Below the pieces are notes generated by a model. It was not told the origin of the DNA, ran no database searches, and worked only from the letters and a program-made list of their open reading frames with translations. A stretch of DNA of 64,000 nt. It comes from a virus. Taxonomy: Duplodnaviria; Caudoviricetes. The stretch spans positions 160,001-224,000 of IMG/VR virus record IMGVR_UViG_3300031088_000008. One strand, written 5' to 3'. Shown here in pieces: positions 1,832-40,853 of the stretch; the first letter of the stretch is position 1, and each line of letters begins with the position of its first letter. The position numbers and the translations under genes were made by a program.

Positions 1832-2512
1832 ATGGAATATTCATTCAAAGATCGCACACCCGAACAGCGTGGTGAAAACTGGTTTGGTCATCAGATCTCC
1901 TTGTTCGTAGAGCGAGTGAGGGAAACTGAGCTACAGGACTTCCTAAAGGAAGCATTTGGAGCCAAGGGCCAAAAGTGGCGTCTTCACAAGCCCCCACTAT
2001 ATTCCTTCTATGATAACCCAGAGACCATTGTTCGCTTTACCAGCAAACAGGATGCCATCCGTTTCAAGCTGAGCTGGAACGAAGACGCCAAGATAGACTA
2101 CGCGGAAAAGATGCGTACTTGGATGGGAAAGCTCACCCTCAACAGTCATTTTGGCAAAGTCATGACCGGTTCCCAACGGCGTGGCGCAATGTCGGCCAAC
2201 GCTCCAACGTGGACTCTGCCTCTGATAAGCCAGACCACTCCTGGCATCTTTCCCACAATGCACCAGTATAAGAGTCGTGGTCTCAATCCCTGCAATGAGA
2301 TCGTCATGCTGGATTATGAATCCACTGGTGATCCCCTGGCCTGGTATAACCAGTGGGTTGAGAACATGGAGGTTTCCACCTGGTCCCAATATGTAATGAT
2401 GCTCGATTCGGAGATACGACGTGAAGACCAATTCAAGCAAGCCTCGTTGGCGATCAAGTCGGATGAAGAGGCGCCACTTCAAGCTGGGCTTTCAATTCCA
2501 CCTGATGCCTGA
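1832..2512 (+). CDS. FKLxW-family domain with C-terminal extension containing PolB/RNR-like motif snippets
   Basis: FTSKQDAIRFKLSW at about residues 70-83, then KLTLNSHFGK, GSQRRGAM, GLNPCNEI. Confidence 0.75.
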   Translation: MEYSFKDRTPEQRGENWFGHQISLFVERVRETELQDFLKEAFGAKGQKWRLHKPPLYSFYDNPETIVRFTSKQDAIRFKLSWNEDAKIDYAEKMRTWMGKLTLNSHFGKVMTGSQRRGAMSANAPTWTLPLISQTTPGIFPTMHQYKSRGLNPCNEIVMLDYESTGDPLAWYNQWVENMEVSTWSQYVMMLDSEIRREDQFKQASLAIKSDEEAPLQAGLSIPPDA

Positions 2513-2897
2513 GCGCATGGAAGAGCTCGAGGCTCTTCTGATAAAGGCAAATCTCAACGATAGCTCACTGATGCGCCTCGACTACAAAGAGCGCTATCCG
2601 GGGTTCGATGAGTACCCATACGATACCCTGATCAGCTTTCAGCATGCCAAGCACGCCACGTGGTTCAAGCTCGTGTGGGTCCCCTGTGTTCCCTATGAGA
2701 AGACGGCGTTCGGCAGGGTTATCCTGCCCATTATTCGACGCGTGATGCCCAGGGTGATTGCTCAGGATATTCTCGGGGTATCGCCCATGCAGGCTCCACA
2801 TAGCAGCATCTACACCATGCGGGCCAAATACGCCGCATCCCAGCCAGCGCCACCCACTTTTGGATTGCCTAAGTCCTTAGCGGAAGATAAGGACTGA
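2463..2897 (+). CDS. FKLxW-family domain fused to a major-capsid (gp23 Gol-like) fragment; start uncertain (2463 or 2505)
   Basis: FQHAKHATWFKLVW then VILPIIRRVMPRVIAQDILGVSPMQAP. Confidence 0.75.
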   Translation: MKRRHFKLGFQFHLMPERMEELEALLIKANLNDSSLMRLDYKERYPGFDEYPYDTLISFQHAKHATWFKLVWVPCVPYEKTAFGRVILPIIRRVMPRVIAQDILGVSPMQAPHSSIYTMRAKYAASQPAPPTFGLPKSLAEDKD

Positions 2898-3087
2898 AGG
2901 CGCGCCTCTGGGCAGTTCTTAATTGAGATATGTGGATTTCCATGCTATTCCGGTTCAGCCCGCTGGAAGGGGCTATCCGAAAACATGCAATCTGCATGTA
3001 CCAAGTAAGCCCTGTCCGGAGTAGCTATTATATATGGGATCAGAATGATTCAGAGGGAATCAGAGAGATCGATGAAGAGGAGACAAG

Positions 3088-3552
3088 ATGCCACACATAT
3101 TCTGTGACTTTGATGGAGTGCTGGTTGATTTCGAACGAGGATTCGAGATGCAATACGGCAAAAAGCACAATGAGGTGCCCGAGTTCGTGATGTGGAAGAT
3201 CATCAAGGACAACATGGCCCACTGGGAGCAGCTTCCCGCTATGCCAGGCGCACTTCAGCTGTGGGCCTACATTTCCAAATATGAGCCAACGATCCTGAGC
3301 GGCTGTCCATCCAGTGGAATGCAGCAGGCTGCCGATGGCAAGACCATCTGGAAGAATCGTGAGCTTGGTCTCCACGTTCCAATCATCACCTGCTTGTCGC
3401 GTTACAAGCCCAAGCACATGAAGGCGCCAGGGGATATCCTGATCGACGACATGGAAAAGAACACCAATCGGTGGACTGAAGCCGGTGGTGTCGCGATCCT
3501 GCATACCAGCGCCGAGGACACCATTGAGCAGTTGAAGGCTCTGGGCCTGTGA
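3088..3552 (+). CDS. HAD-superfamily 5'(3')-nucleotidase-like protein
   Basis: DFDGVLVDF motif I, ILIDD motif IV; SD GAGGAG. Confidence 0.85.
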   Translation: MPHIFCDFDGVLVDFERGFEMQYGKKHNEVPEFVMWKIIKDNMAHWEQLPAMPGALQLWAYISKYEPTILSGCPSSGMQQAADGKTIWKNRELGLHVPIITCLSRYKPKHMKAPGDILIDDMEKNTNRWTEAGGVAILHTSAEDTIEQLKALGL

Positions 3553-3641
3553 ACAGCGGCGTTATCATCTTCATAGCCATGATGGCCGTTGGGGTGATTG
3601 CCTTGTTGATACTGGCCTTTGCGCCAATGGGAGATAGTTGA
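3549..3641 (+). CDS. small (30 aa) membrane peptide
   Basis: GTG start overlapping the upstream TGA; hydrophobic VIIFIAMMAVGVIALLILAF; stop overlaps the next ATG. Confidence 0.4.
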   Translation: MNSGVIIFIAMMAVGVIALLILAFAPMGDS

Positions 3642-4195
3642 TGATTCCGTTTTGGTTTCAAGCGATCATCTTTGTTCTAGGTATGATGGCAGGAACGAGC
3701 ATCTGTATCGTGATTGCCGCCTACCAGAAAGCTGCCAAAAGTGGGCACAGGAATTCAAGGGTCGTCAATGGTGACATGACCGGCGGTGACGTGGTTGGGC
3801 GATTCAACAACAGGGGAAGTGGCATGGGAACAATGCAAGTCAATGGCCGGACGTTTCACGGCAACAACATCTCGATGGTCGGCGGACGCATCATCGTTGA
3901 TGGCAAGGACGTGACTGATCAGTCGGGCGTGGACATGTCCACCGTTCTAGAGATCAAGGTCCAGGGCGATGTGAAGAACGTTTCCAGTGACCAATCGATC
4001 ACCATCACGGGCAATGTCACGGAGAGCGTGACAGCTCAGGGATCCGTTTCCTGCGGTGACGTGGGTGGTGATGTCAAGGCAAGCGGTTCCGTCTCTTGTG
4101 ACGAGGTTGGCGGAAACGTAGAAGCCGGCGGCAGCGTAAGCTGCGATGACGTCTATGGTTCGGTGAAGGCAGGAGGAAATATCAATTATGGCTGA
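3641..4195 (+). CDS. membrane-anchored protein with beta-helix-like GSVSCxxVGG repeats
   Basis: N-terminal TM helix; three 15-aa repeats GSVSC(G/D)(D/E)VGG(D/N)V. Confidence 0.7.
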   Translation: MIPFWFQAIIFVLGMMAGTSICIVIAAYQKAAKSGHRNSRVVNGDMTGGDVVGRFNNRGSGMGTMQVNGRTFHGNNISMVGGRIIVDGKDVTDQSGVDMSTVLEIKVQGDVKNVSSDQSITITGNVTESVTAQGSVSCGDVGGDVKASGSVSCDEVGGNVEAGGSVSCDDVYGSVKAGGNINYG

Positions 4196-4424
4196 CAAGA
4201 CATTGGGGTACAAGTTGGTACCCATCAAGGAAGAGCGCTCCGGCATGGTCATGACCGCCGCGTTGAACACCTGCTTTATCACAGGCAAAGTGATCACCAG
4301 CATGGGCGGTGGCTGTGGTGCCTCGATGGTTCCCGAGGCCTACAGGGTCTTGGTGGACGATGAAGAGGTCCAGGCTCTTATCCGTCAGAAGATTGCCCTG
4401 CTGGGTAGCAATCCAGTAGGTTGA
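4188..4424 (+). CDS. hypothetical protein
   Basis: 78 aa ORF, SD GGAGG, in operon. Confidence 0.65.
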   Translation: MADKTLGYKLVPIKEERSGMVMTAALNTCFITGKVITSMGGGCGASMVPEAYRVLVDDEEVQALIRQKIALLGSNPVG

Positions 4425-4430
4425 TGGATT

Positions 4431-4637
4431 ATGAGTGACGTGGTCCGTCCTTTCAACGCCCAAGATGGTGGCATCTATTATCTGATAAGAGGTGATATTC
4501 GAACCAACGATTTTGAGATTTTAGCCCAGCGTCAGACTCTCGAGGAGATCAACACGCTGGCTCATAGTCACTTGGCTCCTGGCGAAACGGTTCGAATTAT
4601 GTCGCTTGTCAAAGGCGTCACACGTCCCAAAAACTAG
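4431..4637 (+). CDS. hypothetical protein
   Basis: 68 aa ORF in operon. Confidence 0.6.
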   Translation: MSDVVRPFNAQDGGIYYLIRGDIRTNDFEILAQRQTLEEINTLAHSHLAPGETVRIMSLVKGVTRPKN

Positions 4638-4638
4638 G

Positions 4639-4668
4639 TTGACACATGGAACCCAACCACTATAGAGT
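4639..4668 (+). promoter_or_regulatory. sigma70-like promoter
   Basis: TTGACA-N16-TATAGAGT, same form as the dnaJ promoter. Confidence 0.5.
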
Positions 4669-4806
4669 TGTGGTTCGAAGCAAAGGAAACGTCATGATAT
4701 ATTGGTGCCTTATTTGAGATCGGCAGGGTCCTAACTAGCGCACCATCTTTGATGACGTGACATTTGGCCACCCTGCGAGGTTTTACTCCTTTCAGGGTGG
4801 TTTTCC

Positions 4807-5697
4807 ATGGGCGGAAATGCGTTTCCGGGCTTGCAGATGGTGCGAGTCCGAAGGGAGGATGTTGCCTCCACTGTAAATCATGTTGTATCCGTAATGAACA
4901 TGCCTGGGTTTGATATGGCGTACGCCATGGATAACATGATGGGCAGCGCGGGAAAACAGGCCGACAGCGGCGATCTGGACTTTGCCTTGAACAACAAGGC
5001 AGCCCGGTTTCACGGTGAGGCGGATCTTCCGGTGTTCAGCTTGAGGGCTTTCGCTGAGCGTGCTCGGGAAGTCTTGCCTCCGGGTCATGTTCAGACCAAG
5101 ACCCTCAAGGGTGGTCAGTTTCAGACTGCCTTCCCAGTTGCTGGCGATCCTCAGAAGGGTTTCGTGCAGGTTGACTTCGTGGCCGGTAATCCTGAATGGT
5201 TGAAGTTCAGCCACTTCTCGCCCGGCAAGGATAACAGCCCCTACAAGGGCGTCATGTTGTCCACGATGTTGGGTGTGTTGGCCAAGATGCACAAGGACTT
5301 TGAACTCCAGCAGGATGGGGTCCGTGTCGCGAGAGTGGGCTTCCGCTTTGACTTGGAAAAGGGCTTGTACCGTCAGTGGAAGATGCTGAAGCGGGATGGT
5401 CAGGGCATGAACGTGGTGACCGCAGACGAGTTCGAGACAAGCGTTCCTGGTGCTCCCAGGTTCTCTCGTTTGAACCACGTAACGGAACCCAGTGCTGTCT
5501 TGGAACTCTTGTTTGGTACGCCAGTGGATCACTCGGAGGTCAACACCTTTGAGAAGCTGGTCAGCAAAGTCAGGGCCGTGATGCCGGATCGTTTCGACGA
5601 GGCACGTGAGCGTTTCTTGGAAGCATTCTCGAGGAGTGCGGGCAAGAACGATTACTCGGTCGATGACGTGGCTCTCGATCCAGTTTGGAATGCCTAA
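4807..5697 (+). CDS. Pol-beta superfamily nucleotidyltransferase-like protein
   Basis: MGSAGKQADSGDLDF (hGS..DhD) and downstream VQVDF. Confidence 0.7.
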   Translation: MGGNAFPGLQMVRVRREDVASTVNHVVSVMNMPGFDMAYAMDNMMGSAGKQADSGDLDFALNNKAARFHGEADLPVFSLRAFAERAREVLPPGHVQTKTLKGGQFQTAFPVAGDPQKGFVQVDFVAGNPEWLKFSHFSPGKDNSPYKGVMLSTMLGVLAKMHKDFELQQDGVRVARVGFRFDLEKGLYRQWKMLKRDGQGMNVVTADEFETSVPGAPRFSRLNHVTEPSAVLELLFGTPVDHSEVNTFEKLVSKVRAVMPDRFDEARERFLEAFSRSAGKNDYSVDDVALDPVWNA

Positions 5698-5699
5698 GG

Positions 5700-5719
5700 G
5701 GGTGGCTTAACGGCCACCC
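5700..5719 (+). terminator. GC hairpin, possible terminator
   Basis: GGGTGGC-ttaacg-GCCACCC just after the stop; weak U tract. Confidence 0.4.
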
Positions 5720-5799
5720 TCAACTCTTGCACTCCAGAGTACATGGTACTATATTGAGTTATCGCAGGAAAAGATCGACACGATAGCTTGCGAGGTCCC

Positions 5800-6276
5800 A
5801 TGTCTGGACGACACTATCCAATTACCGCTGGCCGGCAGATGGGCAAGACCAGCATCAGCCAGTCCTTCTTCCAGCACTTCAGCAGCGTTATCTACCCCAA
5901 GATCCTGTTTCCAATGCCATTTTGGCATGACTTTGTTGAGCCAGGTGAGGAAGTCATGCAGCCACTGAGTTACTATACCCAGCGAAAGGCTTGGGAAAGC
6001 AAGTACGATCCCAAGTTCCATCAAAAGGGCGGGGAGATCAAAGTCACTCGCGCTCCCAGTGTGGATAACCTTCCTGCAAAGCGGTGGGTATTGCCTCGCA
6101 TGGATCAGGAAACACGTGAGCTACGAACTGCTCATCGGCGCACGATCCTTGCATGGCTTCGTGAGCAGAACTTCAAGTACCAAGTCTGCATTGTGGAGAT
6201 TGACAAGCGGGAGCGTGAGGTCTTCTTGTTCAAGAAGGAATCCATTGCGCTGATGTTCAAACTTGCGTGGGGCTAA
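5800..6276 (+). CDS. FKLxW-family protein with N-terminal terminase-like Walker A snippet
   Basis: ITAGRQMGKTS near N-terminus; ends FKKESIALMFKLAWG. Confidence 0.8.
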   Translation: MSGRHYPITAGRQMGKTSISQSFFQHFSSVIYPKILFPMPFWHDFVEPGEEVMQPLSYYTQRKAWESKYDPKFHQKGGEIKVTRAPSVDNLPAKRWVLPRMDQETRELRTAHRRTILAWLREQNFKYQVCIVEIDKREREVFLFKKESIALMFKLAWG

Positions 6277-6669
6277 ATGGCAAAAAGAAAAAGTCGTACC
6301 AAGAGCACGAAGGCACGGAGAATGTCCGGCAGGGCATTTCTTAGAAGTTTGAGTGGACGGGGAGGCCCCGTAAGTGCCAAGGCACGGCGAATCAAGAGGC
6401 GTCGGACTTCCAAGTACAAGCGATCAATCAACTATTGGAAGGAGCATGGCAACATGCTGTTCAGTAAGATTGATATACGGTATGCGGAGCGTGTCTGGCT
6501 GGAACACTTTGCCCCCGAGGTTGTTCCCGTCCTAGTGCCCGTTCCAGGCGCCGAACACTCTCCCAGCTACAAAAAGGGACTGTGGGATGGCAAGGCTTGG
6601 TTTGTGCAGTTTGAGACCCGTGAGCTAGCTGGCCAATTTAAGAGTCACGTTTGGGGTCTGAGAATCTAA
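6277..6669 (+). CDS. divergent FKLxW-family protein with very basic N-terminus
   Basis: K/R-rich first 50 aa; ends FETRELAGQFKSHVWG. Confidence 0.65.
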   Translation: MAKRKSRTKSTKARRMSGRAFLRSLSGRGGPVSAKARRIKRRRTSKYKRSINYWKEHGNMLFSKIDIRYAERVWLEHFAPEVVPVLVPVPGAEHSPSYKKGLWDGKAWFVQFETRELAGQFKSHVWGLRI

Positions 6670-6703
6670 CAGCGGTTGACGTTGTTCTATTCATGTAATA
6701 AAA

Positions 6704-6958
6704 GTGTGGCAATTAGACAAAGAGGTTCCAGTGAAAGTTCGCCCCCACAGTGAAGAAGTCCGGTCGGATCTGATCGTTCGGAAGACCAGCATCAAGCGGA
6801 ATGGAACCCACTTTACCGTTGTGCCAGAAGTAAAGAGCTGGCTCCAGGACATGGTCAAGAGCCATTGGTACCTCTATGAGCACAAGGAGTATGGTGGTCT
6901 GAGGATTGCCTTCCATGATCACAACGATGCGATGAAGTTCAAGCTCGCATGGCATTGA
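6704..6958 (+). CDS. FKLxW-family small protein
   Basis: ends FHDHNDAMKFKLAWH. Confidence 0.8.
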   Translation: MWQLDKEVPVKVRPHSEEVRSDLIVRKTSIKRNGTHFTVVPEVKSWLQDMVKSHWYLYEHKEYGGLRIAFHDHNDAMKFKLAWH

Positions 6959-7245
6959 AGCCACTCTTCTACATGCTGGCAAAGCATGGGCCGTGGTCAC
7001 ATCATATTCGCATGAAGAACACCGAGGTCCTTGAAGAAGTGGAAGCCTGGCTGATCTCGTCGGGCAAAAAAGAAAACGTGGATTACGAGGTCTTGATCCA
7101 AGCGATCGACCATCGTCATACCAAGAAGACCTTTGTTACCATGCCATCAGGCCCACAACGTCGCCTTCAGTCCATGGAACCCATTTTGTTCTTGAACGAT
7201 CTGGGATCTGCCACGTACATCAAGCTCACGTGGGGTGGACGATGA
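6949..7245 (+). CDS. FKLxW-family small protein
   Basis: ends LNDLGSATYIKLTWGGR. Confidence 0.75.
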   Translation: MALKPLFYMLAKHGPWSHHIRMKNTEVLEEVEAWLISSGKKENVDYEVLIQAIDHRHTKKTFVTMPSGPQRRLQSMEPILFLNDLGSATYIKLTWGGR

Positions 7246-7616
7246 GCAACGTCTACGAAAACTTCGACGAGGAAATCCTCAAGAAGATCCAGGCGGTTCA
7301 GGACCAGTTTTCCAAACCGGGGGCTGATGGTGCTTCGCTTTTCATTCAGATGCGTGAGCTGCTTCTTCGTCAGAGCGAAATGAACTTTGAGGAAGAGATC
7401 AAAGATCACCCACATGGCATGCCAGTTGCCTTTATTGGCAGATCCGTTGATGACTCTCAGGAACTGGCCATGATGGATTGGATCAAGGCCAATCTGTCAG
7501 ATGACGACTTTGTCCTGATGCCACAAAATGCAAGTGGAAAGTACAAAGAGCACTGGAACTGGATCTACTTCCGGCGGAAGGATCAGGCCATGTTGTTCAA
7601 ACTTACCTGGCTATGA
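7242..7616 (+). CDS. FKLxW-family small protein
   Basis: ends FRRKDQAMLFKLTWL; ATGA overlap. Confidence 0.8.
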   Translation: MSNVYENFDEEILKKIQAVQDQFSKPGADGASLFIQMRELLLRQSEMNFEEEIKDHPHGMPVAFIGRSVDDSQELAMMDWIKANLSDDDFVLMPQNASGKYKEHWNWIYFRRKDQAMLFKLTWL

Positions 7617-7873: not shown

Positions 7874-8092
7874 TTACTTGTAGCGGAACGTGATCCGACC
7901 TTTGGTCAGGTCATATGGAGTCATCTCCAAATCCACGGCATCGCCGACAAGAACTTTGATGTTGTTCTTACGCATCTTGCCCGAGATATGACCAATAATC
8001 ATTGCGTCATTCTCGAGCCTGATACGAAATAGAGCGTTTGGAAGGATCTCGGTTACTAGACCCTTCATCTTCAGTGTGTCTTCTTTACTCAT
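7874..8092 (-). CDS. infA: translation initiation factor IF-1
   Basis: [12 protein letters not shown]...[17 protein letters not shown]...[14 protein letters not shown]. Confidence 0.95.
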
Positions 8093-8122
8093 ATCTCTCA
8101 TCATTAAGGAATCTCAGACTAT

Positions 8123-8527
8123 TTACTCTGAGACCTTAATGGTCTGTCCCTCGATGCTTTCGTCATTCATCATGGGCACAATCCACCAAAGGTTGGGGAT
8201 CACATTCTCGGGAAGGTTGTAGGTTTCAACCACTTCCACAATCTCGTCCGTGCAGGTGCGCAGGTACGTCATCGCCTCGCTATTGTAGCAGGAGAAGAAG
8301 TGAACCTTGTAGTCTGGACCCTGAAGGGTAATCCTCAGATCCCAGTCAATGTCCACGCCTGCTTCCTCGATGAACTCCCTCTTCATAGCCATGAAGGAAG
8401 TCTCACCGGGCTCAATCTTTCCACCGATGGCATTGTAGGAACCAGCCTGCCATGCGGGCCGGTTCTTCAAGATCAACGCAACGCGGTCACCCTCGTCGCT
8501 GAAGAGAAGTCCTGCAACGTATTCCAT
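8123..8527 (-). CDS. NUDIX hydrolase
   Basis: Nudix box GGKIEPGETSFMAMKREFIEEAGV. Confidence 0.9.
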   Translation of the reverse strand: MEYVAGLLFSDEGDRVALILKNRPAWQAGSYNAIGGKIEPGETSFMAMKREFIEEAGVDIDWDLRITLQGPDYKVHFFSCYNSEAMTYLRTCTDEIVEVVETYNLPENVIPNLWWIVPMMNDESIEGQTIKVSE

Positions 8528-9174
8528 TACTTGGCGTTTCCCTGTCCCATGATCTTGATGTCGTCGCAGACGCCAAGGTCCTTGGCTTCCTGAGCACTCA
8601 ACCAGATATCATGTGGCGGCAAAAGCTTCTGCTCAATCTGCGCCTTGGTAAGTCCGGTGTGCTTGATGTAGTGGTTCATCATCCGCGTCTGCGTGAGCTC
8701 GTATTCACGAACCGTTGCAAAGAGCTCATGTGCCTTGCCTGCATCACCCCAAGACCACTGGTGGCTTAGAATGGAAGTGTTGGGCGTCAAGATCCTGTGA
8801 CCCTTGGCACCAGCAATGAACGTTAGGAAGCCGCAGCTACCAATCATTCCCAGACCAACGGTATGAACGGGGATGGCGCTTCCCTCCATTGCGTCGATGA
8901 TCGCGAAGGCGCTGTTGACTTCACCACCAGGGCTGTTGATGATCAGCGTCAGATGATCGAAATCATTCTTGGGAGCAAAGTTGGCCTCGAGGATCCACGT
9001 AACAATCTTGCTGGCGCTTTCGCTGTTGAAGCCACCGCTGAGAAAGTACATTCCCTTGTCGCGCAAGGTTGGAACTGGGTTGACTGGAACCGTGGCCATA
9101 ACTGTAGTGGACTCGGGAGTGGACTCAACTTTGATTTCCGCCACGCCCTTCTCCATACCAGATTTTTTACTCAT
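8527..9174 (-). CDS. clpP: ClpP-like ATP-dependent protease proteolytic subunit
   Basis: INSPGG, GSCG (Ser), SHQ (His), HDIWLSAQEA..LGVCD. Confidence 0.9.
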   Translation of the reverse strand: MSKKSGMEKGVAEIKVESTPESTTVMATVPVNPVPTLRDKGMYFLSGGFNSESASKIVTWILEANFAPKNDFDHLTLIINSPGGEVNSAFAIIDAMEGSAIPVHTVGLGMIGSCGFLTFIAGAKGHRILTPNTSILSHQWSWGDAGKAHELFATVREYELTQTRMMNHYIKHTGLTKAQIEQKLLPPHDIWLSAQEAKDLGVCDDIKIMGQGNAK

Positions 9175-9675: not shown

Positions 9676-9757
9676 GCGCTTGTGGTGGAATTGGTAGACG
9701 CGCCAGGTTTAGGTCCTGGTATCGCAAGGTGTGGGGGTTCGAGTCCCTCCAGGCGCA
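9676..9757 (+). tRNA. tRNA-Leu (anticodon UAG)
   Basis: acceptor GCGCTTG/CAGGCGC, anticodon arm CCAGG-TTTAGGT-CCTGG, long variable arm, GTTCGAG T-loop; followed by CAA, not CCA. Confidence 0.93.
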
Positions 9758-9762
9758 CAAAT

Positions 9763-9839
9763 GCCCCGGTAGCTCAGCCGGATAGAGTAGCGGTTTCCTA
9801 AACCGACGGTCAGGGGTTCGAATCCCTTCCGGGGCACCA
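9763..9839 (+). tRNA. tRNA-Arg (anticodon CCU)
   Basis: acceptor GCCCCGG/CCGGGGC, loop TTCCTAA, GTTCGAA, encoded CCA. Confidence 0.93.
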
Positions 9840-10732: not shown

Positions 10733-10809
10733 CGGGGATTAGCGCAGCCTGGTAGCGCACCTGCTTTGGGAGCAGGGGGTCGTAGGTTCGAATCCTACAT
10801 TCCCGACCA
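10733..10809 (+). tRNA. tRNA-Pro (anticodon UGG)
   Basis: CGGGGAT acceptor, CCTGC-TTTGGGA-GCAGG, GTTCGAA, encoded CCA. Confidence 0.95.
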
Positions 10810-15657: not shown

Positions 15658-16251
15658 TTATGGATCCTGGTGGATCCGCTCATAGATGTCATCCCAGCTA
15701 TCAACGCGCTGAACTCTTGGATCCTCGTGCATTTCATTATGCTTGTAGTTGATCAAGAAGCTGGTGTGGCCCACATCCACTCCTGCGCTGGCATGCTTCA
15801 TCTTGTCCTCTACCCAATAGGTTGGAACATAGCGAGCCAGGTGCTCCTTTTTGCTTTCAGCCAATCCCACACAATGCAGAGTGTCAAACACTCCCACGCC
15901 AAAGACCTCATTGAGGTTCTGCCAGCGACCATTGTATGTGGCCTGATCAGTGTCACAGGCCGTGATAGCCACAAAGTGGTAACCCTCACTGTGAAGCTTC
16001 TGAACATTGTCAACCACTCGGGGAAGTGGCTTGAAGAATGGCCAGTAGTCTGGGTTGCTGTTGAAGATCCTGATCAGCTCACGAGATTCCTCATAGGGGC
16101 AAGAGAGCCAACGCTCCACGTCCCAATAGTCCTTTAGGAGACCAGGAGCCTCGCAATGCTGAGGATAGTTGGCACGGACCCACGTTTCAAAAGGTCCTGC
16201 CCAATCGAACAGGACTTCATCACAATCCGTTAGGATGACCTTACTCTTCAT
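15658..16251 (-). CDS. HAD-superfamily deoxyribonucleotidase-like protein
   Basis: ILTDCDEVLFDW, AITA, WVEDK. Confidence 0.8.
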   Translation of the reverse strand: MKSKVILTDCDEVLFDWAGPFETWVRANYPQHCEAPGLLKDYWDVERWLSCPYEESRELIRIFNSNPDYWPFFKPLPRVVDNVQKLHSEGYHFVAITACDTDQATYNGRWQNLNEVFGVGVFDTLHCVGLAESKKEHLARYVPTYWVEDKMKHASAGVDVGHTSFLINYKHNEMHEDPRVQRVDSWDDIYERIHQDP

Positions 16252-16552
16252 CAACAAACCTCGGGCTCAGGCGAAGAGGAATGTAGATGTAATCTTCATC
16301 CTCAGCAAAGTTCACAGCAACGTCCACCCACAGCTCTAGGTCGCTGACACGATCGGGAGTATTGTTGCTTTCGTCGCAGACAACTGTGTAGTCGTATGCC
16401 TCGCTGGCCTCCAGGTGGTCGGTGAAGTCTTCTACGACCTTGGCACGAGTCTCCTCGTTATTCATATCCGACATGAATTCCAGCAAGATGGAAACCAATT
16501 CCATCTTGAGGACTTCCACCTTTTCCATTGTCTCTGGATTAATTTCCGTCAT
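16241..16552 (-). CDS. stand-alone tail-sheath C-terminal-like domain
   Basis: NNEETR...YDYTVVCDESNNTPDRVSDLELWVDVAV matches contractile sheath C-terminus. Confidence 0.7.
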   Translation of the reverse strand: MTEINPETMEKVEVLKMELVSILLEFMSDMNNEETRAKVVEDFTDHLEASEAYDYTVVCDESNNTPDRVSDLELWVDVAVNFAEDEDYIYIPLRLSPRFVDEE

Positions 16553-21033: not shown

Positions 21034-21375
21034 TTAGAAGGGGCAGTCATCCTGAACACCCAATACACCAGTTACGTCCACGCGCTGAACATAATGTACT
21101 TCATCGGCGCTCTCGGGAATCTCAGCTTCAACGCCATAGGTCCAACGACCATGTTCCACTAGAACCCACTGTCCAGCCTTGATGTCAGTCTGCTCATGAC
21201 CAACGCGCCAGACCTGTGCCCAGCGAGGACGGATACCCCGATCCTTGCCATTGTCATCAAGCGTGATAATACCACCCTTGGTAACCTTTTCACCCTTTTC
21301 CATGTTGATCACAAGGATGTGATCTCGGACTGGGCGAATGTCACCGCGGATCTTTGAATAATTGTAGCGACTCAT
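21034..21375 (-). CDS. groES: co-chaperonin GroES-like protein
   Basis: IRPVRDHILV...EKVTKGGII...IKAGQWVLV. Confidence 0.8.
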   Translation of the reverse strand: MSRYNYSKIRGDIRPVRDHILVINMEKGEKVTKGGIITLDDNGKDRGIRPRWAQVWRVGHEQTDIKAGQWVLVEHGRWTYGVEAEIPESADEVHYVQRVDVTGVLGVQDDCPF

Positions 21376-33558: not shown

Positions 33559-33597
33559 AACGATCTCCTTGGAGAGGATTTCCGATATTTACCAACT

Positions 33598-34296: not shown

Positions 34297-34326
34297 TCCA
34301 TCGTAAACTGTCATTCACATCATAAG

Positions 34327-34587
34327 GTGAGAAGTGTGGAAAGTCCCGTAAAGATGCTTAGCCAGGAACCGCATATCTTCCGCGTAACGCTGAGCTTTCT
34401 AGCAACCGGCGCTACCAAGATGGTTGTTGTCAGTTATGATGGCTCCATCGTGTACGTTATGGATGCCGATGATTCCTGGCTCCGGGAGTTCAAGTCCGGT
34501 GAGCACAAGATCTACGTGGACGGCCACTATGATCTGCTGGACTGCAATATCTATCTGGGCAAGCGACGGGAAGATCAGGATTGGTAG
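34327..34587 (+). CDS. hypothetical protein
   Basis: 86 aa preceding the array. Confidence 0.65.
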   Translation: MRSVESPVKMLSQEPHIFRVTLSFLATGATKMVVVSYDGSIVYVMDADDSWLREFKSGEHKIYVDGHYDLLDCNIYLGKRREDQDW

Positions 34588-34796
34588 AGCCCACCTTTGA
34601 ACAGCAATGGCCGCACCGTGTAGAACTGGCATGCTGTATTACCGACTACACGGATGCCTTTTCCTGGCTGTGGGCTCAGATCCTCAAGAACAATCTAGAG
34701 AGTCGAAAGGTCTTCACCACCTTTGGCCAGCGTAGCGTTGGCTTCAGCGACGAGCATCGACAACTGGCCATGCACTTCAAGCTACGATTTGGTTGA
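34581..34796 (+). CDS. FKLxW-family small protein
   Basis: ends RQLAMHFKLRFG. Confidence 0.75.
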   Translation: MVEPTFEQQWPHRVELACCITDYTDAFSWLWAQILKNNLESRKVFTTFGQRSVGFSDEHRQLAMHFKLRFG

Positions 34797-34826
34797 CATA
34801 GAGTAGAGCGGTGCTAAGCCAGTTCT

Positions 34827-35087
34827 ATGAAACAGATCGACAGCAAGTACCGCCAATTTCCCACCGCGCTGGAACTGCCTGATCTTCCCACTGATCGTCA
34901 GTTAGCCCGCAGCGAGGAAATGATTGCGTGGATCAAGGAAAGCAACCTAGTCTACCAAAAGGACTTTGTTTGCTTTGAGCACCAGACCGGCAAGCCCGGT
35001 CACAGCAAGAAGGTCACGATGGCCTGGGCCTTCCGCGATCGTGGCACCGCCCTTCACTTCAAACTAACCTTTGGTGGCTGGCGATGA
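34827..35087 (+). CDS. FKLxW-family small protein
   Basis: ends FRDRGTALHFKLTFGGWR. Confidence 0.8.
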   Translation: MKQIDSKYRQFPTALELPDLPTDRQLARSEEMIAWIKESNLVYQKDFVCFEHQTGKPGHSKKVTMAWAFRDRGTALHFKLTFGGWR

Positions 35088-35584
35088 TGGTGGTCTGCAT
35101 TTCAATCCGCCAGTATTGCAGGGTTGACTACAATACACTCAAGATTCAGCTGGGCACTATGGTCAGTGGATGGATGGATGATTATCTGGTCTGGGAAGGT
35201 GTCGACCACGATTGGCCCGATGCTGATGCCGGGGAAGTTCGTCACCTTCAGACTTGGGTGGCCATTGATGACCACTGGGTAGCGTTCATTTGGAACAGCG
35301 ACGAAATCGGCACCATGTTCAAGAGTTATTTCACGGACTGGAATCCCTCGCACAAGCATCGAGTAATCATCGACGGTATCCGCTACACCGAGGGAACCCT
35401 CAACGGAACTGACATCTTCAAGTGGTTCAAGGAGCGCGACCTCGCCAACTCCGGAGACTACAGCTTTGCTCCTCACATAGATGATAGTACGACACTGGCC
35501 ACGGCCTTTGAGTTCAAGAATGCCCAGACTGCCATGTTGTTCAAGTTGACTTTCGGAGGTACTCATGTTCAAAGCCTTATCTAG
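35084..35584 (+). CDS. two-domain FKLxW-family protein
   Basis: DEIGTMFKSYF and FKNAQTAMLFKLTFGG. Confidence 0.8.
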   Translation: MMVVCISIRQYCRVDYNTLKIQLGTMVSGWMDDYLVWEGVDHDWPDADAGEVRHLQTWVAIDDHWVAFIWNSDEIGTMFKSYFTDWNPSHKHRVIIDGIRYTEGTLNGTDIFKWFKERDLANSGDYSFAPHIDDSTTLATAFEFKNAQTAMLFKLTFGGTHVQSLI

Positions 35585-35897
35585 GGCCAACCGTGAGATG
35601 CAATTGGAAAGCTGGACACCCGTTACAATCACGATGGGAACCATGTTCCACTTGTTCGATCAGGAACGGGAAGACATGGCCACTCCTCTGGACGATCTAA
35701 AGTCCACGTCCGTTCTGTTGTTTCTGGAAACTTGGTGCAAGGCCCATATCAAACAGGGCTTCGCAGTCAAGAGGGAACCGGCATCACTGACCTCCTTTAC
35801 CCAAGTGGGGAAAGATGATAACACCGCATGTCTGATATTTTTGTTCAAATTGTCCAGCGAAGCCGTCCGCTTCAAGATGACGTGGGGCGGACGGTGA
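35565..35897 (+). CDS. FKLxW-family small protein
   Basis: ends SSEAVRFKMTWGGR. Confidence 0.8.
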   Translation: MFKALSRANREMQLESWTPVTITMGTMFHLFDQEREDMATPLDDLKSTSVLLFLETWCKAHIKQGFAVKREPASLTSFTQVGKDDNTACLIFLFKLSSEAVRFKMTWGGR

Positions 35898-36139
35898 GTC
35901 ATACCTTTGTTAAATCCGATGACCACATCTGGGCATGGAACGACGAACCCTTTGTTATGCGAGCCAGCGACGAGGTGAAAAACTGGTTGTTGGCCCACGT
36001 GGGAAAGGAAATGACCTATAGCAGCAAGTGGGGCTGGAAAGGTTCCTGGCGGATACTCCGCATCGATGGCTGCGCTCACTTTGGCTTCGCGGATCCCAAG
36101 AAAGCCATGCTGTTCAAGTTGGCCTGGAGCGGCGTGTGA
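35894..36139 (+). CDS. FKLxW-family small protein
   Basis: ends FADPKKAMLFKLAWSGV; GTGA overlap. Confidence 0.8.
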   Translation: MSHTFVKSDDHIWAWNDEPFVMRASDEVKNWLLAHVGKEMTYSSKWGWKGSWRILRIDGCAHFGFADPKKAMLFKLAWSGV

Positions 36140-36345
36140 GAAAGCAATTCATCTATGAGGTAAAGATCAGCTGGGCCAAGGATCCCTATGGTGACAATTC
36201 GATCGAGTGGCTGATTGAAAACAAGCTCAAGCCGGAACGTGACTGGCAGATTGACATGCACGGCGGAAAGCTGGACTATCTTAGCTTTTGGTTCCACGAC
36301 GCCAACAAAGCCCTGATCGTCAAGCTCACACTGGGTGGCATGTGA
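36136..36345 (+). CDS. FKLxW-family small protein
   Basis: ends FHDANKALIVKLTLGGM. Confidence 0.75.
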   Translation: MRKQFIYEVKISWAKDPYGDNSIEWLIENKLKPERDWQIDMHGGKLDYLSFWFHDANKALIVKLTLGGM

Positions 36346-36566
36346 GTACCGAGTATCCATTCTGCAAGACGGTGGCGATCAGTACTCGTCAGGGTCGTGC
36401 CCGTTATCCTGAACTCGTAAAATGGCTTGAGGATCAAAACTGGTCCGAGGGCTTTGATTACTCCGTGGATCTCCTATACGGTGAGCCCATGGGTGATCCG
36501 GTTGCTTGGCAGTTTGCCTTTGATGATGCGCGGAAGGCTGTGGCCTTCAAGCTGGTATGGGGATGA
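36342..36566 (+). CDS. FKLxW-family small protein
   Basis: ends FDDARKAVAFKLVWG. Confidence 0.8.
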   Translation: MSTEYPFCKTVAISTRQGRARYPELVKWLEDQNWSEGFDYSVDLLYGEPMGDPVAWQFAFDDARKAVAFKLVWG

Positions 36567-36856
36567 AGAACGCCCAGCAGCGCCTGGCTGCTCTTCCCTA
36601 CCATATAATCGTGCCTGGGGTCTGGCATGAGGATCCCATATATGATCGTCTGATCGACGCCATCAACTGGTTGTATGATGATGGTCCGCAATCCACTGAT
36701 TGGTTTGTACACCAGTGTGAAGATGGTATCTTCATAGATAAGAAGAACAAGTACCAGATGTATCCAAGGAAAACAACTGCCTACACGTTCGCGTTCAGGA
36801 ATCGAAACGAAGCCGCGTTATTCAAATTGTTGTGGTTTTATAAATTGAAGTATTGA
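36563..36856 (+). CDS. FKLxW-family small protein
   Basis: FRNRNEAALFKLLWF. Confidence 0.8.
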   Translation: MKNAQQRLAALPYHIIVPGVWHEDPIYDRLIDAINWLYDDGPQSTDWFVHQCEDGIFIDKKNKYQMYPRKTTAYTFAFRNRNEAALFKLLWFYKLKY

Positions 36857-36890
36857 AAGTGCGCCTGCTACCTAGGAGGTAGGAGGAGCG

Positions 36891-37181
36891 ATGTTCAATT
36901 TGCCAGAAGAGTCCGATGGTGAGACCAACTATCACATCGTATATCTGAAATTGCCTGGTAGCGTCTGGTGTGAGAGTACCCAGGATCTCCGCGATGACAT
37001 TGATGCGTGGCTGGAAACCAATGATGTTGGTGACGACCAGTACAACAGCTTCTACTTCCGAGACCCAGAGAACGCACAAGAGGGTGACTGGTACCACAAT
37101 GCGGTGACCAGTAACAAATATATCTGTTACTGCTTCGCGGACCGCAACCACGCACTCCTATTCAAACTCACATTCAAGTAG
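36891..37181 (+). CDS. FKLxW-family small protein
   Basis: ends FADRNHALLFKLTFK. Confidence 0.8.
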   Translation: MFNLPEESDGETNYHIVYLKLPGSVWCESTQDLRDDIDAWLETNDVGDDQYNSFYFRDPENAQEGDWYHNAVTSNKYICYCFADRNHALLFKLTFK

Positions 37182-37219
37182 TCGCTTGACACTGGAAACC
37201 CTGGTGCTACAAAGCTGGC

Positions 37220-37501
37220 ATGAAGCGTCTAGTTGATCCTCTCGTGGCAGAAGGCCATAAGGTATTCGTATCCTATGATAGCAGCGCCTTTGAGACTGTG
37301 AAGGTCTCCACTTCCAAGGGGTTCAGCTATACGAGGAGTCGTAGTCCAACAGCTGGATTCCAAGCGTGGCTACAGGACACTGCCGGTCCTCTTGGTATTC
37401 TCTGGACCACGACCAAGGATGAAGAGGGCAAGGGCTTGTTTATCTTTTTCTACAGGTCCAGTCACGCTATGCTATGCAAGCTCACTTGGGGAGGATCATG
37501 A
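37220..37501 (+). CDS. FKLxW-family small protein
   Basis: ends SSHAMLCKLTWGGS. Confidence 0.8.
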   Translation: MKRLVDPLVAEGHKVFVSYDSSAFETVKVSTSKGFSYTRSRSPTAGFQAWLQDTAGPLGILWTTTKDEEGKGLFIFFYRSSHAMLCKLTWGGS

Positions 37502-37785
37502 CGCACGTCTGCATCAAGGTCAATGACGAGATTTGGGATGGCTACGGTCTCCGCCTCGTCATGCACGACTGGCTGGTGCAGAATGTAGGTCAACAGGCCA
37601 GCGACATGACGGATTATACATGGAGCCGGAAAGCTGCCTTTTATCTGAGGGCCAGCGAGAGTTCCATTGATCCCATGTATCTGGCAACCGGTGATCGCCA
37701 GAATGGTCCAGCAAAATTCCTTCACTTCAAGTTCAAAGACCCCGCGAAGGCTATGATGTTCAAACTTGCATGGGGTGGTCGATGA
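37498..37785 (+). CDS. FKLxW-family small protein
   Basis: ends FKDPAKAMMFKLAWGGR. Confidence 0.8.
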   Translation: MTHVCIKVNDEIWDGYGLRLVMHDWLVQNVGQQASDMTDYTWSRKAAFYLRASESSIDPMYLATGDRQNGPAKFLHFKFKDPAKAMMFKLAWGGR

Positions 37786-38036
37786 CTATTCGGGATAATG
37801 TGATCATCACAACCATCTTCATACCCACGGACAGGTTTCCCTGGAAGCTAGTCAAGGACGATGATGGAGTGGAGCGAAAGCTCTATGATGTCACAGCCGA
37901 ACCTCTAGCAACTGTGGTGTCCATGAACACTGTGTGGGGATTCAACGACAGCACAGATAGCGTGATGATATCATTTCTAGAGGGTTGTGATCTGGATAAG
38001 GTCATGTTATTCAAACTGACTTGGGGAGGATTGTAG
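37782..38036 (+). CDS. FKLxW-family small protein
   Basis: ends LDKVMLFKLTWGGL. Confidence 0.8.
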   Translation: MTIRDNVIITTIFIPTDRFPWKLVKDDDGVERKLYDVTAEPLATVVSMNTVWGFNDSTDSVMISFLEGCDLDKVMLFKLTWGGL

Positions 38037-38299
38037 TGGCCGACCAGCGTGTGATGCGAAATCTCTTTTACGTCTCGATCATCAAGCGAGCGGAGCTCTT
38101 TCATCAGCTGGCCGACCAGGTCTGCGCTCGAATGGGCCCTCCGCCAGAAGGCATTGAAGCAATGCACCGTCATTTGGAAAAGAGTCACGAGGACGATCTC
38201 CGGTGGCTGGTGGACAACGACGTACAGGTCACCATGAAGATGATCGACCTTATCTCCCAGCGGACTGCGGAGATCAGGAGCAAGTTGATTGCAGACTAG
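38036..38299 (+). CDS. hypothetical protein (non-family, inside array)
   Basis: GTG overlapping the upstream TAG; SD GGAGG from upstream WGG codons. Confidence 0.6.
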   Translation: MADQRVMRNLFYVSIIKRAELFHQLADQVCARMGPPPEGIEAMHRHLEKSHEDDLRWLVDNDVQVTMKMIDLISQRTAEIRSKLIAD

Positions 38300-38624
38300 C
38301 TATAAGATGGTCTGGGATCGGGGCAATCCACTCAAGGTGGTTGTCGAGGGTTGTGTTCCTGAGAACTCCTTTGTGTTGCGCGGACCTGAGACTCCCGAGG
38401 AACGGCTTGCACGAAAGGCTCAGGAAGCTGCCAACACTCATATGGAAAATCTAGCTCAGCTTTTCCGAAATCACTTTGACAGTCGGTGGCGTGCCAGTGA
38501 TCTCTATCCATGGATGGAAGAGAACGCACCCGGCTACAAAGTTGGAGTATCCAACAAGAGCGGTGCCATTTTGGTATTCCAAGAAAAGCATCACGCTATG
38601 ATGTTCAAGCTAGCCTGGTCATGA
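38289..38624 (+). CDS. FKLxW-family small protein
   Basis: ends FQEKHHAMMFKLAWS. Confidence 0.8.
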   Translation: MQTSYKMVWDRGNPLKVVVEGCVPENSFVLRGPETPEERLARKAQEAANTHMENLAQLFRNHFDSRWRASDLYPWMEENAPGYKVGVSNKSGAILVFQEKHHAMMFKLAWS

Positions 38625-38854
38625 GTGTCAACGTCGTCCTGCCTTTTAGTACCTGTGCTAGTTCTTCAAGCAATGGGTCGGTGAAAGTCCATCTCAACCC
38701 AGATATTTTGGATTGGCTCGCTGACAATGCGCCCCCAATCAGCCAGAAGGTAAACTGGATGTTGGGTCGCGATTACAGTCGATGGCAGGTAATGTTCAAC
38801 CTCCCCGATAAACACACCGCTGTCTTGTTCAAATTGACTTTTGGAGGCCGTTGA
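38621..38854 (+). CDS. FKLxW-family small protein
   Basis: ends DKHTAVLFKLTFGGR. Confidence 0.8.
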   Translation: MSVNVVLPFSTCASSSSNGSVKVHLNPDILDWLADNAPPISQKVNWMLGRDYSRWQVMFNLPDKHTAVLFKLTFGGR

Positions 38855-38869
38855 CCCCATAATGGGTTA

Positions 38870-39307
38870 ATGCGTATCCTGGAACACTTCGACGTTAAAT
38901 TCTCTGGTCCGTTGAAAGCGACAACTCGTAGCCGCTTCACGCTCCAGAATGACGACGGTACAATCTTTGATGTCATGATCCCCGGTGAGGAAAAACTCCT
39001 CGCGGCATTTCGGTGGATGGGCGAGAATGATTGCCTTCGTCATCTGAGATCCGTCGAGCCTGAATACCATGATAATCTCAAGGATATCATGAAGATTGAG
39101 GAATACAACACCCAGGTTCGAGAACACGCTCATCTGGTTGGAAGTCTTCAAACAGGAATCAACTATAACAATTACTCGCCCCAACATTACTCCAGTAATG
39201 GATATCCAATACCGCAGCTTCAACCTGTTCCCTCTGCGGTCTATGAGTGTACGTGGACCTTCTACAGCAAGGAACACGCAGTGATGTTCAAGTTGGCGTG
39301 CGGCTGA
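38870..39307 (+). CDS. FKLxW-family protein
   Basis: ends FYSKEHAVMFKLACG. Confidence 0.8.
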   Translation: MRILEHFDVKFSGPLKATTRSRFTLQNDDGTIFDVMIPGEEKLLAAFRWMGENDCLRHLRSVEPEYHDNLKDIMKIEEYNTQVREHAHLVGSLQTGINYNNYSPQHYSSNGYPIPQLQPVPSAVYECTWTFYSKEHAVMFKLACG

Positions 39308-39672
39308 TGAAACTCATCGAGAAACATCATCAGTGGTATATTGTTCCCAGCGATGGAGAAATGTTCTTTGCCTGGGAAGCCATTGATGCTGAAGTGCCCA
39401 CGCATATTCGTGCCAATCCCCGCATCTTACCTTTTCTTGCCGAATGGATGGATAACACCTGTCCCGGTCGATGGGGAACGGCATGGATGGATAAAGGCAG
39501 GGCTATCTGGATTGAGGACCCCAGTGTCTTTCAATTGTTCAAGTTAGCCTGGCACGATCACGCCGATATCCAGATAGTAGTGATGCCGGAGATCACGGCC
39601 TTCTACTGCCCCTATATTCCACTGACGATCACGAGTGCAATTCCACAGGTGGGCGATGGCGAGGAGGCTTGA
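39307..39672 (+). CDS. FKLxW-family domain fused to a major-capsid-like AFYCPYIPL snippet
   Basis: EDPSVFQLFKLAW then ITAFYCPYIPLT. Confidence 0.8.
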   Translation: MKLIEKHHQWYIVPSDGEMFFAWEAIDAEVPTHIRANPRILPFLAEWMDNTCPGRWGTAWMDKGRAIWIEDPSVFQLFKLAWHDHADIQIVVMPEITAFYCPYIPLTITSAIPQVGDGEEA

Positions 39673-39904
39673 CGGCGTTCGGGTCGTGATACCCAAGAGC
39701 CGCGTCTGCATTATAGATGAACACGGCTTCGACGACAGTCTCTCGGACGAGTGCTGGGACTGGATCCAAGAAAACATTGGCGCATGGGGTGTGGACTGGG
39801 AACATGGCGAATGTTGGATGTTCGAAGATTATGGGATGACAAGTTTGGAATTTCACTTTAAGAGAGCTTCCGATGCAATGTTGTTCAAACTCACCTGGGC
39901 CTAG
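39656..39904 (+). CDS. FKLxW-family small protein
   Basis: ends FKRASDAMLFKLTWA. Confidence 0.8.
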   Translation: MARRLDGVRVVIPKSRVCIIDEHGFDDSLSDECWDWIQENIGAWGVDWEHGECWMFEDYGMTSLEFHFKRASDAMLFKLTWA

Positions 39905-40157
39905 CTATTGGGATTTTCCGCTTCCCAATAAAAAGCTCTATCGGGATCTCAGTTGGCGGGCTGAGGATGATGCCAGTCGTTTATTCGATCAGGAAATGAA
40001 GGACTGGCTAGACCAGCACAACTTCTCCTACAATGGCAGGTTTGTTCATGCCTCCACGGATCTCAGCCAGTATGGCGAACAAGTCTATTCCTGGAGGCTT
40101 ATGATTCGACTCTATGATTCCAAAGCTGCCGTGCTATACAAGCTGACATGGATCTAG
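39873..40157 (+). CDS. FKLxW-family small protein (start uncertain)
   Basis: ends YDSKAAVLYKLTWI. Confidence 0.7.
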   Translation: MQCCSNSPGPSYWDFPLPNKKLYRDLSWRAEDDASRLFDQEMKDWLDQHNFSYNGRFVHASTDLSQYGEQVYSWRLMIRLYDSKAAVLYKLTWI

Positions 40158-40438
40158 AAGCTACCATTCACACCATTGAGGTGCCAGTCAACGCCGAGTG
40201 CATTGATCGCGCTGGCCGATGGCTCGCAGAGCGTCTGGGTGAGCCCGGATGGAAAAGCAAGCCCCGCACCAACGAACATGGCGATGTGGCCTTTGATGCG
40301 TCTCGTATCTATATGGAAGACGTGCTTTGGGACGCATACGTCAACCCCAGCAGCTTTCGCGCTTTCTTTTTGATCAAAGAAAACGACAACCTTGCCATGT
40401 TGTTCAAGCTGACCTTTGGAGGACAGAATGCTGATTGA
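40148..40438 (+). CDS. FKLxW-family small protein
   Basis: NDNLAMLFKLTFGG. Confidence 0.8.
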   Translation: MDLEATIHTIEVPVNAECIDRAGRWLAERLGEPGWKSKPRTNEHGDVAFDASRIYMEDVLWDAYVNPSSFRAFFLIKENDNLAMLFKLTFGGQNAD

Positions 40439-40853
40439 GGAAGTCAAGTGGCGCAAATGGCTGGGACTTCCCTACATCAGTGTTCAGGGGGAATGGCTGG
40501 AAGAGTTCTATCAGCGAAAGCTCAATCAGGGAGATGTCTCGAGCGCACGATGGACTGGTGGCTTCGAGGAATACCGCTGGGCAAAACCCATAAGGGATTG
40601 GCTCCAGGAAAGTGGCGGACGTTACAAGCTAGAAAAGTGTGGGCAAGCCAGCGACTTCGCGGTTGGAAGGCAAGCTAAGATCTGGTTTCGTGATATGAAG
40701 AATGTCACGATGTTCAAGCTGGCTTGGGGTGGGGCAAAGAAGCCTGAGGATCCGCCAGTTGTGTTTGGTGTTACGAGAACTCTCGTCAAGGCCAAGAGTA
40801 GAAAGCTGAAGGGCACTTGGTCCCTTCAGCCTCCTGAAAAATCTACGAAGTAA
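40428..40853 (+). CDS. FKLxW-family domain fused to a major-capsid-like AKSRKLKGTWS snippet
   Basis: FRDMKNVTMFKLAWGG then FGVTRTLVKAKSRKLKGTWSL. Confidence 0.8.
   Translation: MLIEEVKWRKWLGLPYISVQGEWLEEFYQRKLNQGDVSSARWTGGFEEYRWAKPIRDWLQESGGRYKLEKCGQASDFAVGRQAKIWFRDMKNVTMFKLAWGGAKKPEDPPVVFGVTRTLVKAKSRKLKGTWSLQPPEKSTK

Follow-up and report, generated by a model that had tools for sequence, protein, structure and literature searches.

Tails of small jumbo phage proteins as putative peptide mimics of the T4-type major capsid protein

Results

Three small genes with capsid-like tails

The window analyzed here comprises 64,000 nucleotides (bases 160001-224000) of a single virus record of 416,714 bases (IMG/VR record IMGVR_UViG_3300031088_000008, called G000 below; about 90% complete according to CheckV). 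It stems from a jumbo phage that is closest, among named phages, to Sinorhizobium phage Phosso (469 kb). Three small genes on its plus strand, at 2463..2897, 39307..39672 and 40416..40853, end in tails of 72, 39 and 41 amino acids (aa), respectively, which resemble short blocks of the phage's own major capsid protein (MCP). All three belong to a family of small proteins with a C-terminal A-x-[LM]-F-K-L-x-[WF] helix, termed FKLxW here, of which the phage encodes very many; the motif reads WFKLVW in the first gene and FKLAW in the other two. The genes were taken from the list of open reading frames (ORFs), the third also from the family profile. The start of the first is uncertain between GTG 2421, ATG 2463 and ATG 2505, of which ATG 2463 fits the N-terminal strand of its orthologues (P0001, P0002 and those in the relatives G001 and G002). 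The second is listed from GTG 39247, and its orthologues suggest ATG 39307.

The MCP gene itself lies outside the window, at 49297-50538 of the record on the minus strand. Its product of 413 aa matched the Pfam family Gp23 with an E value of 1.1e-95 and had an identity of 85% with the MCP of Phosso and of about 70% with its counterpart in Agrobacterium phage Atu_ph07. The genome also encodes a T4-type portal, a tail sheath (809 aa; identified by Pfam), a family B polymerase (PolB) and a large terminase (TerL). A ribonucleotide reductase (RNR) large subunit was not found in G000 (no PF02867 match) and is present in Phosso, Atu_ph07 and the complete 455-kb phage G003. The records of the relatives G001 and G002 are incomplete (60% and 39%), and a megablast search of the window against phage genomes gave no match.

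The tail of the first gene contains a block of 40 aa (2715..2834, plus strand; N-block in the following) that corresponds to residues 74-113 of the phage's own MCP. ORF 2421-2897 matched Pfam Gp23 (PF07068) with an E value of 2.1e-11 and 44.3 bits, above the cut-off of 24.4, at profile positions 3-48 of 376. In tblastn the block was 57.5% identical to the own MCP over 40 aa (E 3.5e-12), and none of 2000 shuffled sequences equaled its Smith-Waterman score (z 22.9). It aligned with residues 89-131 of T4 gp23 (NC_000866.4) at z 16.5, again unequaled by shuffles (0/1000). The mature N-terminus of T4 gp23 is described as an N-fist of 25 residues followed by an extended N-arm (PMC9958956), and from this layout and the alignment we infer that the block covers the gp23 N-arm. 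An earlier note on this DNA had taken 2715-2831 for a major-capsid segment, which profile, tblastn and shuffle controls all bear out.

In the second gene, the motif AFYCPYIPLT (39598..39627, plus strand; C-block) corresponds to residues 351-360 of the own MCP, with which it shares 8 of 10 residues. Its first nine residues, AFYCPYIPL at 39598-39624, are all identical to the consensus derived from 20 related MCPs, and their attribution to the capsid protein in the earlier note held up: the alignment with the own MCP reached z 8.4 (0/2000 shuffles), tblastn against the whole genome gave E 0.002, and in the unbiased screen described below the block scored 35.8 bits, above the reversed-sequence maximum of 33.2. 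Against homology of the C-block, a profile of the lineage's MCPs gave it just E 0.22, with a best value of 0.46 for the reversed control, and ORF 39247 had no Pfam match. The tail is kept in G002 and G001, and its version in Phosso exceeds the Pfam Gp23 cut-off.

The third tail holds the VKAKSRKLKGTWSL region (40764..40826, plus strand; mid block), which corresponds to about residues 171-191 of the own MCP and to residues 252-273 of T4 gp23. Here, the capsid attribution is probable. The alignment with the own MCP, covering about 18 residues, reached z 3.9 (4/2000 shuffles) and that with T4 gp23 z 6.3 (0/1000 shuffles). ORF 40416 matched Pfam Gp23 at E 0.27 only, yet at the cognate profile positions 129-156. 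On the other side, the mid block was missed by the lineage MCP profile and is absent from the best 25 rows of the unbiased screen. This tail was seen in G000 alone; the best-matching FKLxW protein of G002 lacks it, and a search in five relatives returned no match and was uninformative. The mid-block tail is thus probably an MCP copy as well, with a weaker case than the N-block and C-block tails. In terms of the T4-type MCP, the three tails copy the N-arm block, the strand that precedes the spine helix and a C-terminal strand of the P-domain.

The FKLxW carriers

An FKLxW profile made from 44 members in the window detected 91 ORFs in G000 at E <= 1e-3. Searches of whole records gave 59 matches in G001, 62 in G002 and 51 in Phosso; Atu_ph07 had a single weak one and G003 had none. 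The main arrays of these genes occupy 34581..50864, with plus-strand genes as far as about 41.8 kb and minus-strand genes beyond, as judged from ORF lists and profile. ORFs 1832, 5788 and 40416 were picked up by the profile; ORFs 2421 and 39247 contain the motif with profile scores short of E 1e-3 and were placed in the family via their orthologues.

A model of one member, computed from the 44-sequence alignment, predicted a compact beta-alpha-beta-beta-alpha domain with a mean predicted local distance difference test score (pLDDT) of 78. Its fold neighbors were not informative (Foldseek against the PDB, best E 0.48; VIA-align, best Z 5.2 to a generic alpha/beta arrangement), and tblastn with one canonical member against phage genomes gave no match. 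The MCP-block tail of ORF 2421 was predicted to be disordered (pLDDT about 35-50).

Of ten further FKLxW proteins with extensions, none matched any virion or replication family. A separate case is a member of 209 aa (277453-278079 of the record, minus strand) with a conserved tail of about 20 aa (TERV...E.E..A) that is kept in three genomes (orthologues at loci L112 and L121); this tail had no match among the large proteins of the phage.

Recurrence in other phages

Beyond G000, the N-block tail is present in five lineages and the C-block tail in four. The combination of FKLxW carrier and N-block is found in G001, G002 and the metagenome protein P0002, for which no locus was found in IMG/VR. 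Phosso has two extra Gp23 pieces: its N-block opens a non-FKLxW protein of 226 aa and runs into five Gly-X-Y triplets, and its C-block opens an FKLTF member. In G003, three neighboring small genes share an 'NWL..FG' head and have as tails the C-block (Gp23 E 3.1e-7), the N-block (E 8e-17) and a TRYGY block, the last of which has no Pfam match and is identical to the G003 MCP at 10 of 14 positions. A resemblance by eye of these heads to the MCP N-terminus was unconvincing. Atu_ph07 has its MCP and no extra Gp23 piece was found there. In a scan of IMG/VR, 5 of the 80 loci kept held small-ORF versions, from three lineages besides G000; the rest were real MCP genes, two of them cut by contig ends.

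Recurrence of core-protein motifs across homologues, which the earlier note had called for, was seen for the MCP blocks. The view that FKLxW is the scaffold was not upheld, since Phosso has the same blocks on carriers other than FKLxW, and so does G003, where the FKLxW profile has no match. The pieces lie in hypervariable arrays of small genes or next to MazG-like, 5-hmdU-kinase and Mre11-like genes and not in the head module; in three lineages the neighbors are DNA-metabolism genes and not head genes.

A different kind of Gp23 fragment was observed in G001 next to a ClpP-like gene (locus L099, 1369-1986, minus strand). This protein of 205 aa covers Gp23 profile positions 202-311 (E 6.8e-12) and amounts to a larger, A-domain-like truncation of the capsid protein; nothing comparable was seen in G000.

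Conservation and age of the N-block

In an alignment of five sequences, 16 of the 23 invariant columns fall in the N-block. Among nine non-trivial pairs the block was 51-70% identical and the carrier, in eight of them, 18-33%; in the ninth pair the values were 56% for the block against 65% for the carrier. Conservation of the block thus exceeds that of its carrier two- to threefold. Compared with the MCP gene, its nucleotide identity is 62%, distributed over codon positions 1, 2 and 3 as 70, 75 and 40%. Different codons encode 15 of the 23 identical residues, no exact nucleotide match is longer than 5 and synonymous sites are saturated. Better conservation than the carrier, together with this saturation, shows that the peptides are old and kept by selection at the protein level.

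The mimics share departures from the genuine protein. MCP residues T86, N90, Q96 and H106, invariant or nearly so in 20 MCPs, are changed in 6, 5, 4 and 5, respectively, of the six mimic lineages, G003 included. In G003 the N-block is 74% identical to the block of G001 and just 57% to the MCP of G003 itself. Because of the shared departures and of this closer relationship to the G001 block, we read the N-block mimics as probably going back to one old capture that has since been shifted between carriers.

Two other readings were considered and rejected. A decoy acting at the DNA level, for homing endonucleases or recombination, does not fit the low nucleotide identity, the divergence at third positions and the short exact run given above. 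A decayed second MCP gene does not fit blocks that are not collinear and lie 37 kb apart.

Claimed terminase, polymerase and reductase segments

The earlier note had named at least five FKLxW members and given five segments that resemble core proteins. Three of these are MCP segments, one of them only probable; the terminase and the PolB/RNR segments found no support.

The Walker-A-like string at 5821..5853 (plus strand) has RQMGKT in common with the own TerL, and its Smith-Waterman score was equaled by 170 of 2000 shuffles. Both orthologues, in G001 and G002, lack the string and begin at about ATG 5956, so that the FKLxW gene here probably spans 5956..6276 (plus strand) and the string lies upstream of it, not conserved and probably untranslated. 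PF03237 had no match in the window. Around this probable start (5935-6045) we noted a weak alignment to residues 118-152 of the own MCP (z 4.8; 3/2000 shuffles), of which a KAWESKYDPKF core is kept in the orthologues.

The gene at 1832..2512 (plus strand; RFKLSW), with orthologues in G001 and G002, has a tail of 144 aa in which PolB- and RNR-like motifs had been claimed at 2129..2329 (plus strand). No search supported them. The tail scored z -0.1 against the own PolB, matched no virion or replication family of Pfam at E <= 1 (no PF00136 match) and found an unrelated enzyme as best match in the PDB (E 1.3). A three-sequence profile of it reached phi29 polymerase at a non-significant E of 0.54 and no RNR; a tblastn search of 50,697 phage records, with E <= 10 as limit, yielded seven matches, no PolB or RNR among them; ESM Atlas look-alikes were not found. 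Against 100 large proteins of the genome it scored 22.3 bits, below the reversed control at 23.5. For RNR, the best of 9 Smith-Waterman tests gave z 2.8 (7/500 shuffles).

The bare motifs are nevertheless rare. In 1.19 million translated residues, K..LNS.[YF]G is confined to three PolBs and the orthologues of the 1832 tail, and NPC.EI to 1832-type tails and one other small protein of G001; shuffling predicts 0-0.1 occurrences of each, for patterns that were chosen after the fact. NPC.EI is absent from one of three tail orthologues.

A related observation was made in G001, where a non-FKLxW protein of 190 aa (locus L104, 18254-18829, minus strand), with a neighbor read from its sequence as ThyX-like, contains YLSNPCTEITLP. 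This string is identical to the active-site loop of the G003 RNR at 10 of 12 positions (z 2.6; 11/500 shuffles), and the protein had no Pfam, PHROG or PDB support.

Copies of sheath and portal

In an unbiased screen, 1,376 small ORFs were matched against the 100 largest proteins that the genome encodes, using reversed sequences as control (the maximum quoted for the C-block above). Fifteen real matches exceeded the control, and four of these are copies of virion proteins: MCP with ORF 2421 (73.1 bits), portal with an ORF at 78-758 of the record (50.8), sheath with 16244..16552 of the window (48.8) and MCP with ORF 39247. The remaining ones were ordinary paralogues, the FKL motif, collagen repeats, shared N-termini of tail fibers, repeat domains and putative translations of tRNA genes. 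Among the best 25 rows, no small ORF was paired with polymerase or terminase.

The sheath copy (16244..16552, minus strand, 102 aa), which the earlier note does not list, reproduces the last 90 or so residues of the sheath. It matched the own sheath in tblastn (E 6.7e-12) and phrog_10581, 'tail sheath', at E 2.9e-18 and profile positions 822-911 of 915. Its neighbors, read from sequence, are HAD-like, dCMP-deaminase-like and clamp-loader-like genes, that is, genes of nucleotide metabolism and replication. Phosso, Atu_ph07 and G003 have large sheath genes only, and the mini-sheath was seen in G000 alone. The portal copy (78-758 of the record, minus strand, outside the window) comprises 63 aa that correspond to portal residues 456-516 with 36.5% identity, rising to 68% in a core of 19 aa, and opens a collagen-like protein (Pfam Collagen).

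Discussion

Judged by their sequences, the tails are peptides that mimic contact segments of a T4-type MCP and have been kept by selection; they are held in the frames of small genes and mounted on swappable carriers. The models suggest that the MCP pieces are exposed as disordered extensions of small folded carriers. The set of proteins copied is narrow: capsid pieces, one sheath copy and one portal copy are supported; snippets of terminase, polymerase and RNR are not. In the literature searched, we found no description of phage genes for single MCP segments. Should the tails indeed work as mimics, the virus would be reusing its own structural proteins as isolated peptides on exchangeable carriers. 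The tails would then mark short segments of virion proteins that a sensor of the host, a chaperone or a rival virus reads or binds, and would be ready-made probes for the discovery of that partner. The design is testable, since Phosso is a cultured relative, growing on Sinorhizobium meliloti, with two such genes. For annotation, small ORFs that match the Gp23 profile should be regarded neither as broken capsid genes nor as misassemblies.

Several known systems come close to this arrangement, each with differences. The Gol region, which we take to span about residues 93-122 of gp23, falls within the stretch matched by the N-block tail. Like the Gol peptide in the Gol/EF-Tu/Lit exclusion of prophage e14, this tail is a short MCP piece that could act alone; Gol, however, belongs to the capsid protein itself and activates a host defense, whereas the tail is encoded by a separate gene. 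With T4 gp23 and its vertex paralogue gp24 (PF07068) the blocks are clearly homologous in sequence. The full-length HK97-type fold is nevertheless not there: the tails cover no more than 46 of the 376 profile positions, with matches at 3-48 and 129-156, and are predicted to be disordered, and without this fold they cannot be shell subunits. Gp67 and gp68 of the T4 prohead core are also small head proteins, and gp67 weakly resembles a stretch of gp23. They probably help to set head size (PMC9026906). They lie, however, in the head-gene module, the likeness is to the propeptide and not to the blocks copied here, and homology to FKLxW was not seen. DSAD1 of phage SPbeta is described as an inhibitor of DSR2, a sensor that is triggered by a virion protein (PMC11087589). 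In the present case the candidate antagonist would be a copy of the trigger itself. For DSAD1 we know of no similarity to the tail tube protein that serves as trigger. Satellites, finally, use capsid-homologous size-redirection proteins such as Ccm, and thereby a capsid copy, against the assembly of another virus. These are whole-fold homologues encoded by satellites, whereas the tails are pieces of 10-40 residues encoded by the phage itself.

What the tails do may be approached from their presumed mode of action: they would occupy, on some partner, the site to which the corresponding segment of free capsid protein binds. We tentatively favor a role in conflict, with somewhat less than even confidence. 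The partner would preferably be a host defense protein that reads short capsid motifs, for which the tail would be a non-triggering antagonist or decoy; this we hold to be possible, though on balance doubtful. The capsid protein of a rival virus is an improbable partner. A role in conflict is suggested by the accessory and patchy distribution of the tails, by their location in hypervariable arrays and beside DNA-metabolism genes and by the existence of defense systems that read short MCP motifs. CapRel is switched on by a motif of the capsid protein. A short Gol peptide inside T4 Gp23 activates Lit (PMC9712102). Going further, one could imagine that T4-type jumbo phages have a heritable kit of self-peptides, copied from those segments of capsid, sheath and portal that host immunity reads and altered at a few positions invariant in the genuine proteins, so that they would bind Lit-like or CapRel-like sensors and leave them inactive. 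We consider this version speculative and rather unlikely on present sequence data. If true, it would be a form of immune evasion by competitive antagonism so far undescribed for any bacterial virus.

A number of observations weigh against the tails as mimics in conflict. As Lit and CapRel are activated by the motif they read, a faithful copy made early in infection should trigger these systems and not block them. With 23 of 40 residues identical, the N-block resembles the jumbo-type MCP more than T4 gp23 (about 17 of 43), so that its strongest competition would be with the capsid protein of the phage itself. Early expression of the tail genes is deduced from neighboring genes alone, and a promoter scan was uninformative (4 sites found, 3.5 expected; T4-type late-promoter words are rare, with 8 in the genome). 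To this add the misses of the mid block by the lineage profile and the screen. All copied blocks are elements of assembly interfaces, which fits a role in assembly equally well, and two of the copies, the Phosso N-block and the portal copy, sit on collagen-like, fiber-like proteins, which looks structural.

The interface character of the blocks leads to the alternative that the tails aid the building of the phage's own capsid by docking in the place of the genuine segment, on MCP that is either free or already assembled. They could keep MCP from polymerizing too early, contribute to fixing the size of a head as large as this one, or tether accessory proteins or fibers to the shell. The N-arm of T4 makes extensive contacts with neighboring subunits after expansion (PMC9958956), and the Gly-X-Y triplets behind the Phosso N-block and the collagen domain behind the portal copy point the same way. 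Relatives such as Atu_ph07 are described with hair-like fibers on head and tail (PMC7824862). T4 gp67 offers a modest parallel through its weak likeness to the gp23 propeptide (z 3.0; 11/1000 shuffles). A location away from head genes is no obstacle in itself, since helpers of MCP folding can lie far from them, and a GroES-like gene, so named from its sequence, is found in the window at 21034-21375. Yet a building function is hard to reconcile with a patchy, lineage-specific distribution, with genes placed in hypervariable arrays and by DNA-metabolism genes, with carriers freely swapped among lineages and with mimics that depart from the MCPs at four positions kept (nearly) invariant there; and in the 'hairy' phage Atu_ph07 no extra Gp23 piece was found. 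We see assembly as a possible explanation, though on balance a doubtful one.

The tails might also be neutral relics of an old MCP gene copy, scattered by recombination and read through from neighboring small genes. The C-block indeed lies at a gene junction, being read from the upstream gene in G000 and opening the downstream gene in Phosso, and the G002 protein that matches best lacks the mid-block tail. Relics would hardly have kept their frame and the MCP-conserved residues in six lineages despite saturated synonymous sites, nor would they be better conserved than their carriers or recur as the same blocks on unrelated ones, and we give this explanation little credence. Still less probable, in our view, is the wider display library envisaged in the earlier note, in which motifs of MCP, terminase, PolB and RNR serve as decoys for pattern sensors. 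The rarity of the two strings beyond shuffled expectation, the RNR-loop string of the small G001 protein, the sheath and portal copies and the sensors for portal and for DNA polymerases reported in a preprint (10.64898/2026.01.04.697583) speak for it. The PolB/RNR patterns were picked post hoc, however, the 144-aa tail did no better than its controls and found no family, structure or phage-database support, NPC.EI is missing from an orthologue, the Walker-like string failed in shuffles and orthologues alike, and none of the ten further extended FKLxW proteins matches a core family. The probability that is left after conflict, assembly, relics and library falls to something else.

Other features of the window

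Three tRNA genes, for Leu (tag), Arg (cct) and Pro (tgg), were found at 9676-9839 and 10733-10809 on the plus strand, inside a region that looks early. By eye, four minus-strand genes appear DnaJ-like (168-1064), ClpP-like (8527-9174), GroES-like (position given above) and IF-1-like (7874-8104). If these calls are true, they would constitute a notable set of proteostasis and translation helpers close to the mimic genes.

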